From NCBI GenBank assembly GCA_016840855.1, contig JAEORO010000141.1, positions 1-15,909 of the forward strand: 15,909 bases of DNA, in the 5' to 3' direction. Source of the stretch: Candidatus Thorarchaeota archaeon (GTDB taxonomy: Archaea; Asgardarchaeota; Thorarchaeia; Thorarchaeales; Thorarchaeaceae). The notes beneath the pieces were generated by a model. That model was not told the DNA's origin, searched no databases, and saw only the letters and a program-made list of their open reading frames with translations. Numbering within the stretch: position 1 is the stretch's first letter; each line of letters opens with the position of its first letter. This document shows, piece by piece, positions 1 through 6,856 of the stretch. The position numbers and the translations under genes are program-made.

Positions 1-606
1 ACTGAAACAAACCTTGGAATAGGTAGGGTGACTTCATCGAAAACGAACTGGCAAGCACTCCCTCCAATGCAGGATGTCCTCAGGAAGTACATGAAGACCC
101 ACCCTGAAACTCAGGATGCAAAGATTGAGGCAGTGAATGGTGGTGTTGTTCCATGTGCAGGGATAATTCCGAGGTTCACTGATGCAGGAGTTGCGCTTGT
201 TGGAAACTCAGCCGGACAAGTATCATCAATTGTCGGCGGAGGAGTTACAACTTGCCTCCATGCAGGTCAAGTTCTTGCAAAACATGCGAAAAGAATGGCG
301 GATGCTGGAGATTTCTCAAAGAACAGCGTATATCAGTATGAAAAGGAGTATAGAAAGACAAAACTGGCCTCTAACATCACTAACACGGGTAAAGGAATGT
401 GGGCAGTATCAAAGTATTCAATGTTCAACGACCCGATCGTTGCAGCAGAGGTCGTGTTGGGCCAACTTGATGCCAAGACACTGAACGAACTGATACAGGG
501 ACATGCAAGCGTTGGCACTTTGATGACTCTTATGACAGACTTCCTCCCAATGGTAGCGAGAATTGGAGTCGGATACCTTCGAGCTATCGCTGTGAGCGGT
601 CTTTAA
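1..606 (+). CDS. Geranylgeranyl reductase-family FAD-dependent oxidoreductase, 3' part (5' end outside the window)
   Basis: The frame is open from base 1 (TETNLGIG..., like the GGR 'ANVGIG' strand). It contains GGVVP and ALVGNSAGQVSSIVGGGV...AG, matching the GGR GDAAGxxxPxxGxG FAD motif, then the typical 'YEKEYR' helix. Stop TAA at 604-606. Confidence 0.8.
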   Translation, partial: TETNLGIGRVTSSKTNWQALPPMQDVLRKYMKTHPETQDAKIEAVNGGVVPCAGIIPRFTDAGVALVGNSAGQVSSIVGGGVTTCLHAGQVLAKHAKRMADAGDFSKNSVYQYEKEYRKTKLASNITNTGKGMWAVSKYSMFNDPIVAAEVVLGQLDAKTLNELIQGHASVGTLMTLMTDFLPMVARIGVGYLRAIAVSGL

Positions 607-611
607 AAAAA
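605..611 (-). terminator. Oligo-U (T7) archaeal terminator for the minus-strand transcript
   Basis: A7 on + at 605-611, directly after a small GUGA/UCAC hairpin (626-623/615-612) on the minus strand. Confidence 0.5.
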
Positions 612-760
612 GTGAGAGAGAATCACGGAGTCGAAGCAGGGGACACCCCCCCGCGCCGCCCTGCTTCGTGGCCGATGGGACCCACCGGCATGCCCTGTAC
701 CATGCCCGTTGTGGATTACCGTGAAGCATCCACCCGGAGTTAGCAGCGGACAGCTGCTTA
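605..760 (-). ncRNA. Candidate structured small RNA of unknown family (~155 nt)
   Basis: About 64% GC (90/140 over 621-760) against ~40% in the flanks. Five stems: 742-747/753-758, 711-716/728-733, 687-692/701-706, 671-678/682-689 and 632-641/659-668 plus an inner extension. Three A.C mismatches on + become G.U pairs on -. TATA box ~25-30 nt upstream and a T7 run at the 3' end. Confidence 0.55.
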
Positions 761-871: not shown

Positions 872-1903
872 ATGTCGCTTGATAATCGAATTTCGAAGGC
901 CCTTGAACTTTGTGGATTTATATCTGAAGATAGACAGAAGTCACGATCAATGAGTCTCCTGAGCATAATTCTCAAGCTACAAAAAGACCCACCAATTCCA
1001 TTGACATTTTCAGAGATTTATAATCGATTTCAAAAAGAAGACTCGGATAACAAACTCACAAAGGCATGGATTCATAGAGTACTCAGGTCATTGTTAGATG
1101 CCCAGCTGGTACGTGTAGAGAACCCCTCTGCTCACCGTAAGAGGTACATAGCAGATGTCAACACGGTGATGGCAGGACTTGAACAATTGAAGAGTCAACG
1201 AATACATGAACTTGAAACTCAAAAAAATGGGATTGATAGAACGATCGCGGAGGTTGCAAGTCTTGATTGTGGTGATATTGCACAGGCGTTCATCAAAAAC
1301 CTAACCGGAACACGACAAAAAATTAGTTCGAGGATTGTCAGGGGGGTTGATGAGCTTCATAGGGTTCTTAAATTCAATATGCTGGATGTCGCAAAGAAAG
1401 GAGACATTATTCGAGCAACAGCTCTCTGGCTCGGCCCATTTGTTGAAGGAGCTGTAAATCGAACTATGAGATTCATAGAAGTCGCTCAAAGGGGTGTTGA
1501 TGTCAGATACATGCTATCAACACAGGTATTCCAAATTGAAGAGTTAGCCCCTCATGTTACAATCAATATGGACCAAGCGAGGGAAGTCATACACCATCTT
1601 CATATGCTCAGAAAGAGTGGCGTAAAGTTTGATATTCGTATCTATGAAGGGCCAAAAACATACAATCAAGTGAGCATCAATAATGACAACATGGCGTTGA
1701 TAATTGCTGAGGACCCAGTCACTGCCACATGGATCACTCGAGATTTCAATCCAGACTTAATTGACAATGCAGTGAAAGCTTTTGACAGAGACTGGAGAAA
1801 AGCAAAATCGTTTTTGGAGATGACTCCGAAGGACTTGCAAATGTTTGGAGTAGAACCCGGAGGACTAATTAGTAAGCTTACCAGCCGAGATAATAAAGAA
1901 TAA
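872..1903 (+). CDS. TrmB-like regulator (wHTH + coiled coil + PLD-fold effector domain), paralog 1
   Basis: wHTH recognition helix KAWIHRVLRSLLDAQLV, a coiled coil, then IVRGVDEL, KKGDIIR, RGVDVRYM and the C-terminal NPDLIDNAVKAFDRDW. ATG 872 is preceded by GAGGT (860-864); the alternative start is ATG 851. Confidence 0.7.
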   Translation: MSLDNRISKALELCGFISEDRQKSRSMSLLSIILKLQKDPPIPLTFSEIYNRFQKEDSDNKLTKAWIHRVLRSLLDAQLVRVENPSAHRKRYIADVNTVMAGLEQLKSQRIHELETQKNGIDRTIAEVASLDCGDIAQAFIKNLTGTRQKISSRIVRGVDELHRVLKFNMLDVAKKGDIIRATALWLGPFVEGAVNRTMRFIEVAQRGVDVRYMLSTQVFQIEELAPHVTINMDQAREVIHHLHMLRKSGVKFDIRIYEGPKTYNQVSINNDNMALIIAEDPVTATWITRDFNPDLIDNAVKAFDRDWRKAKSFLEMTPKDLQMFGVEPGGLISKLTSRDNKE

Positions 1904-1926
1904 TCAAATCAAATGGGGTATGGAGG

Positions 1927-2838
1927 GTGGAAACTGAACTAAGACACGAAGAAGTGCTTGAAATCATTGGAATGGATAGCACAAAAAAAGACATGGTTAT
2001 TCTTGGAGCGATTCTAAAAGCTCAGAGGGAACCGACAGAGTTCATCGACTTCGAAACTCTTCGTAAGCAATTGGCAAAAGATGAAGGAACAAGAAAAGGG
2101 AAAGATTCCTTGGTCTATAGAAGCCTCTCATGGCTTGAAAAAGAGGGATTTGTGAAGATTGATGACAGTGGTCACAAGCATGGGTACAACTCAAGTGTCA
2201 CAAATATTGAGAGAGCCTTAGAGAAAATCATCAATGATAAGATAGCAGATATGAAGCAAGAGTTGAAACATATTGATTCCGAAGTGACAGAACTATCAGA
2301 TATTAAGCCTGAGGCTCTGGCATCACATTTGATTGATTCGGCTATAGGGAAAAGTAAAATTGAGAAGCCTCTCTTTGCACAGGGTTTTGAGAACATCTTA
2401 AAGCTGCTTGATGACAAGGTGTACAAGGGCCTCAAGAGAGGAGATGTGATAAGGATTACACTTGAGTGGTTGTCTCAAGGAGATTTTTCTAATTCAATAA
2501 GAGTGATGAATGCTGAAAAGCTCGCCAAGATTGGTGTTGAATTCAGAGCTCTTGATCATGATAGGAGCGAGAGAAAAATACGTGAAAAAATGAAACCATC
2601 TATTATAAACTGGCAAAAAGAATACAATACGATTGGTTATAGTATCCTCCCCCGAAAAGATGCAACATATCAATTCGTGGCACGAAACAACGAAGGATTA
2701 GTACTTGTGGTATCTGAGAGCCCTCTATCTGCAACGTGGCTACCAAGAGAAGTAAATCCGGATTTAGTTGATAATGCGATTGATAGTTTCGACGATGATT
2801 ATGTGATGGGAAAAAGTATTCTGGATTTTGAGGGATGA
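1927..2838 (+). CDS. TrmB-like regulator, paralog 2
   Basis: DSLVYRSLSWLEKEGFV (wHTH), coiled coil, AQGFENIL, KRGDVIR, IGVEFRAL and NPDLVDNAIDSFDDDY. GTG start with GGGGT upstream. Confidence 0.7.
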   Translation: METELRHEEVLEIIGMDSTKKDMVILGAILKAQREPTEFIDFETLRKQLAKDEGTRKGKDSLVYRSLSWLEKEGFVKIDDSGHKHGYNSSVTNIERALEKIINDKIADMKQELKHIDSEVTELSDIKPEALASHLIDSAIGKSKIEKPLFAQGFENILKLLDDKVYKGLKRGDVIRITLEWLSQGDFSNSIRVMNAEKLAKIGVEFRALDHDRSERKIREKMKPSIINWQKEYNTIGYSILPRKDATYQFVARNNEGLVLVVSESPLSATWLPREVNPDLVDNAIDSFDDDYVMGKSILDFEG

Positions 2839-3806
2839 ATAAGGTGCCAAGTAGAAAACGCGCAAGCAGTTTCGAAAAACTCGGAGTAGACATTACATCA
2901 AGTGAAATGCAGGTATTCAGAGCAGTCCTAATTGCTGCCGGAGGTATTAACAAACCAGCAAGCTACAATGAGATAGCTACAAGTCTTGAATCAATTGCTG
3001 GTAAGAAGTATACCAAAGCCTACATCTATAGACGACTAAACAGTCTAGAAGAAGATGGGTTCATAATTGTTGACACAATCCATACACCAAGAACATATAC
3101 AGTCACAGAATCGAGTGTCATAAGAGCACTTGAAACAAAAAGGGAGAGAAAATTATTTGAAAGCCTTGCAAAGAGACATGATGTAACTACAAAACTCAAT
3201 CAACTCAATTCAATCCAGAAACAAGAGCTTGCGATAATGTTACACAAACAACTGGTGGGGACTCAATCAATTGATAAATCTCAGGTGATTGAAGGAATCG
3301 AGAATGTTAGAAGCACTATCATTCGAGATTTTGCAGATGCTGCACAAAAGGGAGATCGAATTAGAATTCTGGGTCATGCAAGCACTCTAGCAGAGGGTCT
3401 TGGTCCAGGAGGTGTTACTGAGCTAAAAGTAATACAGGCGGGTTTCAGAGGGGTTAAAGTCCAAGGCCTCCTGACTCCCATTGGACAAGAAGATCTTGAT
3501 TTGAATCTGATGGCTCGCCATTTGACTCCGATGGTTGAGGTCTTTAAACAAGCAACAAAGACTGGTAATATCCAATTGAAACTTACACATGCACCAATTA
3601 ATACCTACAGAATAGTCTGTCTGAATGAGGACAAGATGCTCCTTTATCTTACACATGCAAAAGAATCGGATGTTGCAGCTGTAATCCATCGGGATTACAA
3701 CCCTGGACTCATTGATGATGCTATTAAGACCTTTGACAATCTATGGGGATCTGGTTTAGATGTGCTAGATATGGTGAAGCAAGTGCTGAAGAAGAAGACA
3801 ACTTAG
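2835..3806 (+). CDS. TrmB-like regulator, paralog 3
   Basis: KAYIYRRLNSLEEDGFI (wHTH), IEGIENVR, QKGDRIR, RGVKVQGL and NPGLIDDAIKTFDNLW. ATGA overlap with paralog 2 suggests translational coupling. Confidence 0.72.
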   Translation: MNKVPSRKRASSFEKLGVDITSSEMQVFRAVLIAAGGINKPASYNEIATSLESIAGKKYTKAYIYRRLNSLEEDGFIIVDTIHTPRTYTVTESSVIRALETKRERKLFESLAKRHDVTTKLNQLNSIQKQELAIMLHKQLVGTQSIDKSQVIEGIENVRSTIIRDFADAAQKGDRIRILGHASTLAEGLGPGGVTELKVIQAGFRGVKVQGLLTPIGQEDLDLNLMARHLTPMVEVFKQATKTGNIQLKLTHAPINTYRIVCLNEDKMLLYLTHAKESDVAAVIHRDYNPGLIDDAIKTFDNLWGSGLDVLDMVKQVLKKKTT

Positions 3807-4876
3807 GATTCAGAGATCCAATCTTTGCTCTTCGATAGAGTCACAAAAATATCATCACAAACCGCTTGGAAGTTTTCGTAGAGACCGTACTCACCACCTG
3901 CTGCATATGGGTGTCCGCCACCATTGAACATTTTCGCTGCAGCATTACATAGTACCCCATCAGAGCCTCTTCTAAATCCTAGCATACCTCCTTGACTAAG
4001 TGATAGTAAGAGGTCTGCAACCTTCAGCTCAGGATCGATAGAAACTAAGATTTCAGGATTAGATGCAAAAGTACCCATATCAGTGGATGTAAGACCACTT
4101 GGAATCTCCACTATCCGAACCAACTTCCCGTGAATTATTTGATCGCAATGTCCAGTTAGTGCTTTCCTCATCTTCTTCGTCTTCTCTTTTCGATAATGCT
4201 CAACGCGTTGGTTTAAGAGCACATCCTTGAATTTATGAGAGTCTTTATCCCAAACTCCACTCAGTCCTTCATCTGCTAATTTCGCGAGAACAGCATAAAG
4301 AGCATCAGTCACATCTTCCTTTTTGTCAATTGCTCCAAAACGGATGACGCTAACAGCATCAGTAAGAGCGTTGGCTGCTTCAATCTCGCGAAGATTGAAG
4401 TCTGTATCATGTGCAATCCGAGCAAGTTCAGTAGAAACCTCATCACGGGGCATGAGAACTTTATGTGTAATCTCTGCAGCGCAGAATTCATGATTGACTT
4501 TAAGAACCGGTTTGTTTCCAAGCGAGAGAATCATCTTGATTGATTTATCAGGCCATTGATGATGATCCAACCATACGACCCGAGAGTCTTGAGTAATTGC
4601 CCTTGTGAGCCCAGTCTGGACCATATCAATTATTGCATCATCCATTCCAAGGTCAGTTATGATGATCAAGGTATCTCTCTGCCTTGCAATGTAGGAGAAA
4701 ACTTGCTCAAAAGAACCATAGTCTGTAAGAATTGCCTTGAAGTCGAGACCTTTTTCCTTCGCGTACCTCCATACAATGGCGGCTGAAGCTAGTCCATCCA
4801 CATCCTTATCGTGCGAGATCGAAAGGAGTGAAGTGACCTTCTTCGTCGTATTATTGCTTTCTCGTTCTTCAGGCAT
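3803..4876 (-). CDS. DHH/DHHA1-family phosphoesterase (NrnA/RecJ-like superfamily)
   Basis: All family motifs are present: SHDKDVDG, ITDLG, WLDHH, HDTD and the DHHA1 motif GGGHPYAAG. Confidence 0.9.
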   Translation of the reverse strand: MPEERESNNTTKKVTSLLSISHDKDVDGLASAAIVWRYAKEKGLDFKAILTDYGSFEQVFSYIARQRDTLIIITDLGMDDAIIDMVQTGLTRAITQDSRVVWLDHHQWPDKSIKMILSLGNKPVLKVNHEFCAAEITHKVLMPRDEVSTELARIAHDTDFNLREIEAANALTDAVSVIRFGAIDKKEDVTDALYAVLAKLADEGLSGVWDKDSHKFKDVLLNQRVEHYRKEKTKKMRKALTGHCDQIIHGKLVRIVEIPSGLTSTDMGTFASNPEILVSIDPELKVADLLLSLSQGGMLGFRRGSDGVLCNAAAKMFNGGGHPYAAGGEYGLYENFQAVCDDIFVTLSKSKDWISES

Positions 4877-4999: not shown

Positions 5000-6856
5000 A
5001 TGAGCAAGTCCAAGCGAAATACCATCATGAGTGGAAATGAAGCCATTGTAAGAGGCGCTTTAGAGGCGGGTGTTGGGTTTTGCGCATCATATCCTGGAAC
5101 CCCCTCAACTGAGATTGCTACAGGTCTCTTTGATTTCGTTACTGAGTACGATATTCATGTTGAATGGTCCACAAACGAAAAGGTAGCAATGGAAGTAGCT
5201 GCCGCAGCAAGTTGGGTGGGAATTCCATCTCTGTGTTCGATGAAGTCCTTGGGTCTGAATGTTGCGTCGGATTTCCTCCTTAATCTGAATCTGACTGGAT
5301 CAGGAAAGGGAGGACTAGTAGTTGTTGTTTGTGATGACCCTAAAGGACATAGTTCTAGCAATGAACAAGATTCAAGATTTTATGCAAAAGCTGCCAAAAT
5401 TCCTCTCCTAGAGCCATCGACACACCAAGAGGCAAAAGATGTAACAATAAGCGCTTTCAGCCTCTCTAAGAGATTCGAGATTCCTGTACTCATCAGAAGT
5501 ACAACAAGACTGTCACATTCTAGAGGTCTTGTAGAAATTGGAAAGGTTTCACCCAAAACGCGAAAGACACACGATTTGCAGGAACATCTTTACAATGTAC
5601 CGTCGCCGCATCTCAGACATAAAGACCTTCTAAAGAAAATGGAAAAGATTGCAGAAGAGTTCGAGAAATCACCATATAATACTGAGAAGATCAGGAAAGA
5701 CAGCAATCTGCTAGTGATTTCAAGTGGGATAAGTTCACTCTATGCAAAGGAAGCGATTCATATCATTGCATCTGACAACATAAGCCACTTGAATTTGGTT
5801 ACTACTAATCCATTACCAAAGAACAAAATCGCTGAACATCTTTCGAGAGCAAATCAAGTTCTTTTCATCGAAGAAAATGACACATTCATTGAGGAGAGTA
5901 TCAGGGCACTATCAACAGAACTACAGGAGATTCCAAAATTCTTCGGAAAGATGACAGGGCACATTCCAAGTTATGGAGAAATGAATACAGACCTTGTATT
6001 GACTGGACTCTTTACATTAACAGGAAGAGAAGAGAAGGAAAAAACTGAACATGAGCCGCGCTTGACAAATCTATTGGTCGAAAGACCTCTCACTTTCTGC
6101 ACTGGATGCACTCATAGGAACTTCTACTGGGCTGTACGAACCGTGAAGAAGAGGTTGGGAGGGAATCTTGTTGTTGCTGGTGACATTGGGTGCTACTCTC
6201 TTGGAGTGTTCTATGATGAAGCAATGGACACAATGCATGCCATGGGTTCGGGCATTGGTGTTGGTAGTGGACTAGGCCAACTTCAGAGGTTTGGGTTTGA
6301 TTCCAAGGTAATATCGGTTGCAGGTGATTCGACCTTTTTCCATGCATGTATTCCTGGACTCATAAATGCAAGGCACAAAAACGCAGATCTAACATTTGTG
6401 ATTCTAGATAATGCTACTACAGCAATGACCGGCTATCAGGTTCATCCAGGTTCAAACATTCAGGATGAGAACCTAAGGAGAGTTCAGATAGAGAATCTAA
6501 TCAAAGCTGTGGAGCCAGACTTCTTCGCTATTGGAGATGCAACAGACATCAATTCCATGATTAGCCTTTTGCACTCCACAGTACAGAAAAGGGGTCTGAA
6601 AGTCCTCCTGATGAATAGCATATGTAGACTTGAGGAAGTCAAGAGAAAACCCGGGATTGTTGGTGCAACTTTAGTCAAGATAGATCGTAGTCTATGCAAG
6701 GGAGAGAAATGCAAGATATGCGCAGCGGATTTTGGCTGTCCAGCCCTGGTCTGGGACCAGACAACGAACTATCCTGTTGTCTTGGACCACGTGTGTGTGA
6801 GATGTGGTGCATGCATTGATGTCTGTCCCCATAACGCTATTGTGGAGGGAGAGTAA
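5000..6856 (+). CDS. iorA: Indolepyruvate:ferredoxin oxidoreductase alpha subunit
   Basis: MSGNEAIVRGALEAGV, YPGTPSTEI, EWSTNEKVA, SSSNEQDSR, FCTGCTHR, GDIGCY, the TPP motif GDSTFFH...LDNATTAMTG, and a C-terminal 2x[4Fe-4S] ferredoxin domain (CKIC...CP, CVRCGACIDVCP). Confidence 0.93.
   Translation: MSKSKRNTIMSGNEAIVRGALEAGVGFCASYPGTPSTEIATGLFDFVTEYDIHVEWSTNEKVAMEVAAAASWVGIPSLCSMKSLGLNVASDFLLNLNLTGSGKGGLVVVVCDDPKGHSSSNEQDSRFYAKAAKIPLLEPSTHQEAKDVTISAFSLSKRFEIPVLIRSTTRLSHSRGLVEIGKVSPKTRKTHDLQEHLYNVPSPHLRHKDLLKKMEKIAEEFEKSPYNTEKIRKDSNLLVISSGISSLYAKEAIHIIASDNISHLNLVTTNPLPKNKIAEHLSRANQVLFIEENDTFIEESIRALSTELQEIPKFFGKMTGHIPSYGEMNTDLVLTGLFTLTGREEKEKTEHEPRLTNLLVERPLTFCTGCTHRNFYWAVRTVKKRLGGNLVVAGDIGCYSLGVFYDEAMDTMHAMGSGIGVGSGLGQLQRFGFDSKVISVAGDSTFFHACIPGLINARHKNADLTFVILDNATTAMTGYQVHPGSNIQDENLRRVQIENLIKAVEPDFFAIGDATDINSMISLLHSTVQKRGLKVLLMNSICRLEEVKRKPGIVGATLVKIDRSLCKGEKCKICAADFGCPALVWDQTTNYPVVLDHVCVRCGACIDVCPHNAIVEGE

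Follow-up and report, generated by a model that had tools for sequence, protein, structure and literature searches.

In bacteria, several small RNA (sRNA) genes are located divergently from the gene of their own regulator, as in the pairs OxyS/oxyR, GcvB/gcvA, and SgrS/sgrR. No known prokaryotes are closer to the eukaryotes than Thorarchaeota and the other Asgard archaea, whose RNA biology is very poorly known. We analyzed a window of 15,909 nucleotides (nt), comprising positions 1 to 15,909 of contig JAEORO010000141.1 in the Candidatus Thorarchaeota archaeon assembly GCA_016840855.1, with regard to an element on the minus strand at positions 605 to 763 (all coordinates without another label are those of the window). 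This element is very probably the gene of a folded noncoding RNA (ncRNA) of about 155 nt that lies outside the cataloged RNA families. Among archaeal intergenic sRNAs, sRNA154 and sRNA41 of Methanosarcina mazei mask ribosome-binding sites with their loops, as described in PMC5867862.

The locus resembles the three bacterial sRNA-regulator pairs in that a small structured RNA gene with a predicted promoter of its own stands back-to-back with a transcription factor gene, with a short, highly conserved control region in between. It differs from them in belonging to an archaeon, with a TATA promoter and with three tandem TrmBL2-like regulators, which may control the RNA, and the RNA itself has no similarity in sequence or structure to the bacterial ones (no Rfam match). 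With sRNA154 and sRNA41 it shares the archaeal host, the intergenic position, the stable fold, and a length of about 100 to 150 nt; the exposed loops of those two pair with the ribosome-binding sites of mRNAs (PMC5867862). However, no mRNA complement was found here, the host belongs to a different phylum, and there is no homology; the exposed loop here is G-rich and resembles a ribosome-binding site rather than the complement of one. Like the signal recognition particle (SRP) RNA (RF01857), the RNase P RNA (RF00373), and the 5S rRNA (RF00001), the element is present in a single copy, is GC-rich relative to the genome, and has a conserved structure, but unlike these it is limited to one family of archaea and diverges fast between genera. 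That this is a new RNA family of a familiar kind, namely, a small structured intergenic RNA, is well supported, and on present evidence the RNA does not represent a new kind of mechanism. A single-copy structured RNA at one locus across a family provides a defined handle for experiments. Placed back-to-back with a triplicated chromatin-type regulator, it offers a putative family-specific regulatory RNA and a possible RNA-regulator pair, and the covariance model is ready for use in annotating these genomes.

The element sits between the end of one plus-strand gene (stop codon at 604 to 606) and the start of the next plus-strand gene. A sequence-only reading of the window had pointed to a GC island in this gap, and 100-nt windows bore this out, with a GC content of 0.62 at 601 to 700 and 0.66 at 651 to 750 compared to 0.38 to 0.52 in the flanks; the GC content of the genome is 0.419. 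The extent of the ncRNA gene, 605 to 763 on the minus strand, was obtained with covariance models, and the gene scored 182.9 bits with model R1 (built from 22 copies of the genus) and 163.3 bits with model R2 (built from 45 copies). Transcription would start at about 760/759 and probably end within a U-run. The element is present once in the 3.36-Mb assembly, and a hairpin of the type that forms its core (P4, described below) likewise occurs once in the genome. Taken together with the fold, strand, and boundary data given below, we regard it as highly likely that the element is a real, separately transcribed ncRNA gene, as the sequence-only reading had proposed.

On the minus strand, positions 605 to 760 reach a folding energy of -68.0 kcal/mol (z = -3.08), a value that 1 of 200 dinucleotide shuffles also attained. 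The corresponding values for the plus strand were -56.1 kcal/mol and z = -1.95, with 8 of 200 shuffles equally good. The minimum-energy fold holds the 10-bp stem noticed earlier, CGAAGCAGGG/CCCUGCUUCG, which is lengthened by a 5-bp, G.U-containing inner stem up to a GGGGGG loop. Five stems had been claimed from the sequence; the four hairpins here designated P1 to P4 are conserved in relatives, but the small 3' GUGA/UCAC stem is not. The assignment of the gene to the minus strand, which the same reading had based partly on wobble pairs, also held among the homologues. In a model-fitted alignment of 45 copies, the paired columns contained 112 G.U cells and 21 A.C cells, or 74 and 21 when an invariant U.G pair was left out (33 of the 34 pairs). 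Fold energies, which depend on no alignment, point the same way: the sense fold was more stable than the antisense fold in 42 of the 45 homologues, with a mean of -55.7 versus -47.7 kcal/mol. The position of the TATA box agrees with this strand as well.

All four hairpins P1 to P4 are backed by compensatory base changes in relatives, and covariation was tested on two alignments. For the first, the 22 genus copies were aligned with MAFFT, with no structure imposed. Here 83.0% of the cells were in standard pairs, compared to 35 to 48% when the 3' partners were slid by 1 to 3 columns. Changes on both sides were found in 11 pairs, where shuffles averaged 5.4; 0 of 500 shuffles gave as many, and the covariation score was reached by 1 of 500. 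The second test used the model-fitted alignment of 45 copies, in which 85.1% of the cells were paired (30 to 40% when slid) and 28 of the 34 pairs, amounting to 109 cells, had changed on both sides, again with 0 of 500 shuffles as high. The MAFFT-alignment test weighs more, because the 45-copy alignment leans towards structure.

The individual hairpins differ in how they are conserved (pairing values for single hairpins are those of the 45-copy alignment). The 5' hairpin P1, at 742 to 758, consists of AGCAGC and GCUGCU around a UGUCC loop; all 6 of its pairs show changes on both sides, and 90.8% of the cells are paired. P1 is replaced wholesale between genera, and one genus member has ACAAC/GUUGU in its place. 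P2, at 705 to 738, is closed by UCCG/CGGG with a conserved U.G pair that is retained in 37 of the 45 copies; variants with different stem sequences were seen among the homologues, and helices 2 to 4 had 93 to 94% of their cells paired. Between P2 and P3 lies a conserved single-stranded linker, CAUGGUACAGGGCAU, at 690 to 704, the core of which, GGGCRUGUUAY, is retained in other genera. This linker is the most conserved single-stranded stretch of the RNA, with a mean column identity of 0.96 in the genus (positions 704 to 692).

P3, at 671 to 689, is a variable hairpin: both sides have changed in all 8 of its pairs, yet no more than 63.7% of the cells are paired. P3 is dispensable, because it is absent from one genus copy (L015, 143 nt) and from four copies of another genus (L061 to L063 and L071, 120 nt). 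P4, at 632 to 668, is the core hairpin and the part best conserved across genera; its stem, GAAGCAGGG/CCCUGCUUC, is fixed, and its apical loop carries a G-run at 646 to 652. Across genera, the stem in the form GAAGCAGGG(U)/(A)CCCUGCUUC is nearly fixed, the same pair being kept at six positions in 40 to 44 of the 45 copies. The loop always contains a run of G, which is invariant within the genus. P4 as a whole has 87.4% of its cells paired, and both sides have changed in 6 of its 10 pairs. The 5-bp inner stem of P4 had 89.9% of its cells paired, no pair changed on both sides, and shuffles did equally well, so that this inner stem is compatible with the alignment, though unproven.

P4 is followed by a C/U-rich single-stranded tail at 612 to 631, with an identity of 0.55 in the genus; in the homologues the tail appeared pyrimidine-rich by eye. 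The G-run of the loop and a C-run of the tail are strongly complementary (-18 to -31 kcal/mol) in one other genus and in a few single copies, with some apparently compensatory changes (GGGGGCG with CGCCCCC and GGGGUG with CACCCC). A loop-tail pseudoknot was rejected as a family-wide feature, as it is absent from this genus and from several others. In some genomes, the C-run that is complementary to the loop falls within the coding sequence of the neighboring reductase gene. An alternative pairing of the duplicated words CAGGG and ACUCCG was also considered and rejected; the second copies, judged by eye, are not conserved outside the genus.

The predicted promoter and terminator were present where they had been claimed. 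On the minus strand, TATATAAA occupies 789 to 782, within a TATA box annotated at 781 to 790 (ATATATAAAT) that has a mean column identity of 0.84 in 17 genus rows, and positions 782 to 789 lie about 25 nt ahead of the onset of conservation. An 8-mer consisting only of A and T begins 19 to 26 nt before the model match in 28 of the 45 copies and is found anywhere within 70 nt in 37 of the 45. At the other end, seven U at 611 to 605 (identity of 0.91 in the genus) form a likely archaeal terminator that touches the stop codon of the convergent gene. The 5' boundary was inferred from the distance to the TATA box together with the point where conservation begins. The conservation profile of the genus was taken from 17 of the 22 genus rows, the 5 rows with different flanks being dropped, and gave identities of 0.84 for the TATA box, 0.56 for a 20-nt spacer, 0.89 to 0.96 for the RNA body, 0.55 for the C/U tail, and 0.91 for the U-run. 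Such a profile is what one would expect if a promoter were followed by a start some 25 nt further on and then by a functional RNA body and a terminator. A run of at least five T near the 3' end was found in 21 of 25 genus copies and in 5 of 20 copies in other genera (26 of 45 in total). The 3' end is not defined by sequence outside the genus, because only those 5 of 20 copies have such a run.

Homologues were found in close relatives by sequence and in further genera by structure. A blastn search detected the element in 21 of the 27 other genomes of the genus (E <= 2.2e-8; 71 to 96% identity), and outside the genus it gave nothing better than an E value of 0.079. Model R1 matched 45 of the 86 genomes of the family, this genome included, with exactly one match per genome. 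Apart from this genome, the matches were distributed over 24 of 27 genomes of its own genus and 12 of 17, 2 of 5, 2 of 2, 3 of 7, and 1 of 7 genomes of other genera; in ten further genera of the family R1 had no match. Model R2, applied to 151 genomes sampled evenly from the phylum, matched 15 of 26 genomes of the family, and the 124 genomes of other families yielded 1 marginal match (E value of 0.0095). As far as these model searches show, the RNA family does not extend beyond a single family of Thor-type Asgard archaea.

The locus as such may reach further within the family than the model does. Five genomes from genera without a model match were inspected, and four of them keep the regulator array that neighbors the RNA gene. 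In all four, a GC-rich stretch is present at the same place and on the divergent strand. Three genomes from genera without a match (L085 to L087) also have a G-run hairpin and a pyrimidine tail, with a T-run in two of the three, and two of the array-keeping genomes without a full match gave weak model scores at the locus (E values of 0.08 and 0.14). The locus is probably family-wide and fast-diverging. An exact-pattern scan for the P4 core hairpin covered 185,579 species with one genome each and returned 33 stretches, 23 of them archaeal and 10 bacterial. The archaeal stretches carried the labels Thorarchaeota (17), Promethearchaeota (3), Hermodarchaeota (1), and uncultured archaeon (2), and all 23 were full-length model matches with 37.9 to 156.5 bits. 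Of the bacterial stretches, 3 had no match at an E value of <=0.01, 5 matched the selected hairpin only, and 2 were weak matches labeled full-length (29.4 and 22.7 bits), which we read as dominated by the selected hairpin. The same motif scan gave 0 matches on viral contigs.

The sequence-only reading had placed the RNA outside the known families, and the searches agreed with this. None of the 4,227 models of Rfam 15 matched anywhere in the window at the gathering score. At an E value of <=10, positions 500 to 900 gave two noise matches (E values of 1.3 and 8.1), both outside the element, and 10 homologous loci from other genera gave 0 matches at the gathering score. ARAGORN found 0 tRNA or tmRNA genes in the window. 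The SRP RNA, RNase P RNA, and 5S rRNA of this genome are all located on other contigs, with scores of 87.7 bits (below the 96.5-bit cutoff, but with an E value of 4e-20), 163.9 bits, and 63.1 bits, respectively; these matches also identify the organism as an archaeon. A full-text search of the literature, supplementary files aside, found no description of this RNA.

Guide RNAs and a U6-like RNA were also considered. Box C/D sRNAs carry the consensus RUGAUGA towards their 5' end and CUGA towards their 3' end, the two forming a kink-turn (K-turn), and such guides are far shorter than about 155 nt. RUGAUGA was present in 0 of the 45 homologues and CUGA in 11, with both in 0, in agreement with the earlier view that the RNA is no C/D guide. 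In archaeal H/ACA sRNAs, a hairpin opens into a large internal pocket for pseudouridylation, its upper stem bears a K-turn or K-loop, and an ACA follows directly 3' of the lower stem. The supported structure, inspected by eye, has no hairpin bearing a large two-sided internal loop, and an H/ACA identity was rejected; ACA triplets occur at RNA positions 52 and 66, neither of them directly after the base of a helix, with the second being conserved only within the genus. The U6 small nuclear RNA (snRNA; RF00026), brought to mind by the Sm/Lsm remark of the sequence-only reading, is characterized by an ACAGAGA box, by an AGC triad that goes with an internal stem-loop, and by a U-tract at its 3' end. 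Like U6, the RNA described here has a hairpin at the 5' end, the sequence ACAGGG within a single-stranded linker, a long hairpin in its interior, and a U-run at the 3' end. However, ACAGAGA occurs in 0 of the 45 homologues and ACAGGG in only 22, the U-run is absent in most other genera, and RF00026 gave no match at an E value of <=10; U6 was rejected as well.

On the 3' side, the RNA gene is convergent with the 3' part of a geranylgeranyl reductase family gene on the plus strand (1 to 606), the full-length orthologue of which matches GGR_cat, FAD_binding_3, and TIGR02032 (E value of 1e-38). On the 5' side, three tandem TrmBL2-like regulator paralogues, divergent from the RNA, are encoded on the plus strand at 851 to 1903, 1927 to 2838, and 2835 to 3806, and these open reading frames (ORFs) cluster together. 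The convergent reductase gene adjoins the RNA in 42 of the 45 loci, and the divergent regulator array is present in 42 of the 45. The regulator paralogues had no Pfam match at 1e-3. An AlphaFold model of the first paralogue (predicted local distance difference test [pLDDT] score of 81.9) had chains of TrmBL2, an archaeal chromatin protein, as its best PDB matches (E value of 1e-10), followed by TrmB and PLD-fold proteins. In the protein atlas, the neighbors of the regulator are TrmB-family proteins, with Thorarchaeota as the commonest taxon. The paralogues combine a winged helix, a long helix, and a PLD-like C-terminal domain, and one other genus has four tandem copies. An alignment of 20 sequences contains no invariant H or K, which fits our impression that the paralogues may lack the catalytic HKD motif.

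A highly conserved block of 28 nt at 793 to 820 is flanked by the TATA box of the RNA on one side and the divergent regulator gene on the other; its identity in the genus is 0.92, and it is recognizable in other genera. To judge from its position and conservation, this block is probably the promoter or operator of the regulator gene. It contains the palindrome TGTATACA. Two genus copies (L010 and L022) are without the conserved upstream block and without a regulator ORF in the 670 and about 1,480 nt upstream, respectively; both retain a TATA-like element and the reductase gene.

Our best explanation of these observations, to which as a whole we assign a probability of about 0.6, has two parts: a stand-alone ncRNA gene and a trans-acting role. 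The minus strand at 605 to 763 would carry a stand-alone structured RNA gene of about 155 nt, transcribed from its own TATA promoter (782 to 789), and in this genus the transcript would end at the U7 run abutting the reductase stop codon. The RNA would be a chain of the hairpins P1 to P4 joined by conserved single-stranded linkers, with P4 as the putative functional head, in which the fixed-sequence stem and the G-rich apical loop are followed by the C/U-rich tail. It would act in trans as a regulator, with the linkers, loop, or tail pairing with mRNAs, with protein binding, or with both. Its synthesis may be linked to the TrmBL2-like regulators by way of the highly conserved control region that the divergent genes share. 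We put forward the specific claim that the RNA is a trans-acting regulator controlled by its neighboring regulators only tentatively, as a possible but rather doubtful part of the whole.

Several results weigh against this explanation. No complementarity of at least 14 nt to the RNA was found elsewhere in the genome; the best antisense matches were 12 to 13 nt long and lay in the low-complexity (CU)n tail. The tail motif is common genome-wide, with TCTCTCTC occurring 302 times, and for a longer tail motif most of the 17 listed sites seem to fall within coding sequence, as judged by reading and not from mapped ORFs. The RNA paired with the 5' regions of its two neighboring genes no better than shuffles did (z from -1.82 to +2.56), in a test on all 45 regulator leaders and 37 reductase starts that used mononucleotide shuffles and allowed long gapped duplexes and is hence crude. 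The fixed P4 stem, with little covariation in its lower pairs, suits protein recognition no less than it suits pairing with mRNA. With a run of at least five T in only 5 of the 20 copies from other genera, the RNA may run antisense into the reductase gene there. The model-fitted alignment, moreover, is biased towards structure and towards G.U pairs.

RNA-library data also belong among these points. A search of RNA runs gave one run with 4% of sampled words. Of the four RNA runs examined, three had no contig at the locus, and the lone contig obtained there was 166 nt long, had a depth of 2.8 and less than 90% identity, and came from a relative. It covers 691 to 819, extending across the predicted start and the TATA box into the conserved block, and contigs of this kind carry no strand. 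The contig marks no 5' end of the RNA, because it spans the predicted start and the TATA box, and it may represent DNA carry-over or read-through. A loose end of 33 nt resembles the P4 half of a genus variant without P3. As evidence for or against the RNA gene the contig counts neither way, because it is strandless and bridges the promoter.

The P4 stem is conserved down to its sequence, with the same pair at six positions in 40 to 44 of the 45 copies, and for this reason a protein-binding RNA ranks as the chief rival. The RNA would then be a ribonucleoprotein (RNP) scaffold or a decoy with no mRNA target, and the P4 helix with its G-loop and the U- or pyrimidine-rich 3' end would be the recognition sites; a candidate partner is an Sm-like archaeal protein on the tail, as the sequence-only reading had suggested. 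The invariance of the G-run in the genus, the mRNA-target searches that found none, and the presence of one copy per genome at a fixed locus are in keeping with this. However, the neighbors are DNA-binding TrmBL2-like regulators and a lipid reductase rather than known RNA binders, and the U-run is absent from most copies outside the genus, and we consider a purely protein-binding RNA unlikely. The convergent reductase gene suggests another explanation, a cis-antisense element: the RNA would run towards the 3' end of that gene, and in many genomes into it, or reductase transcripts might equally read through the RNA. Collision or a duplex would then set expression, and the fold would only tune termination. 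The 3' end of the RNA abuts the reductase stop codon in the genus, most copies outside it have no run of at least five T, and there are genomes whose reductase gene contains, within its end, a C-run complementary to the P4 loop; by eye there is no plus-strand T-run from the stop codon to about 780, and the RNA-library contig bridges the promoter. Such a mechanism needs neither four compensating hairpins nor conserved linkers, though, the copies of this genus have a strong U7-U8 run ahead of the gene end, and there is no excess pairing with the reductase start region. A cis-antisense role is rated as quite improbable.

The G-rich loop could alternatively be a Shine-Dalgarno mimic that docks on the 3' end of the 16S rRNA, or the tail could mimic the 16S end and thus capture the ribosome-binding sites of mRNAs, with a global modulation of translation in either case. 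The 16S 3' end of one family member is GAUCACCUCCU, and 40 of 40 P4 loops pair with the 16S end over 5 to 8 contiguous positions when G.U is allowed, 18 of the 40 over 8 positions. This pairing is largely a matter of composition, since shuffled loops match its length in 3 to 12% of cases for most genus copies and in 15 to 97% for most others, and the loop of the largest other genus has CGG, not UGA, at its end; we regard a Shine-Dalgarno mimic as very improbable. An elaborate version, in which the P4 G-loop would be a Shine-Dalgarno look-alike with the pyrimidine tail as its competitor and the RNA a global decoy of translation initiation switched on via the TrmBL2-like regulators, would be just as long a shot; no stand-alone ribosome decoy RNA is known to us in archaea, a point at which no literature search was aimed. 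Finally, the element might be no RNA at all but a DNA-level element such as a protein-binding palindrome or a mobile repeat, or a short protein-coding gene. Its hairpins are also DNA palindromes, and an ORF of 116 codons on the minus strand (418 to 768) overlaps it and runs antisense into the reductase gene. However, G.U cells are far more frequent than A.C cells, unlike in a DNA palindrome, and the element is not a dispersed repeat, because it is single copy with fixed synteny; one copy in the genome and one model match in each of 45 genomes also set it apart from repeats like miniature inverted-repeat transposable elements (MITEs) or repetitive extragenic palindromic (REP) sequences, in line with the sequence-only reading. 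Among the closest relatives, 1- and 2-nt indels inside the RNA break any reading frame, and a coding gene was rejected. ORFs similar to that at 418 to 768 have inconsistent starts and ends in relatives and are mostly antisense to the reductase gene, and the ORF is read as spurious. An element that is not RNA is barely credible on these data, and the stand-alone ncRNA gene with a proposed trans-acting role is preferred over all four rivals.

Among the 16S rRNA sequences of relatives, that of L096 spans 2,411 nt (1501 to 3911 in that sequence) compared to the 1,478-position model. The 16S rRNA of L095 (1501 to 3038) carries additional sequence near the 3' end, and the CCUCC that normally terminates such genes was not seen there. 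These observations suggest that both 16S rRNA genes contain large insertions or introns. Elsewhere in the window, a DHH/DHHA1 phosphoesterase is encoded on the minus strand at 3803 to 4876, and a 2-oxoacid:ferredoxin oxidoreductase-like protein with POR_N, TPP_enzyme_C, and Fer4 domains is encoded on the plus strand at 5000 to 6856.

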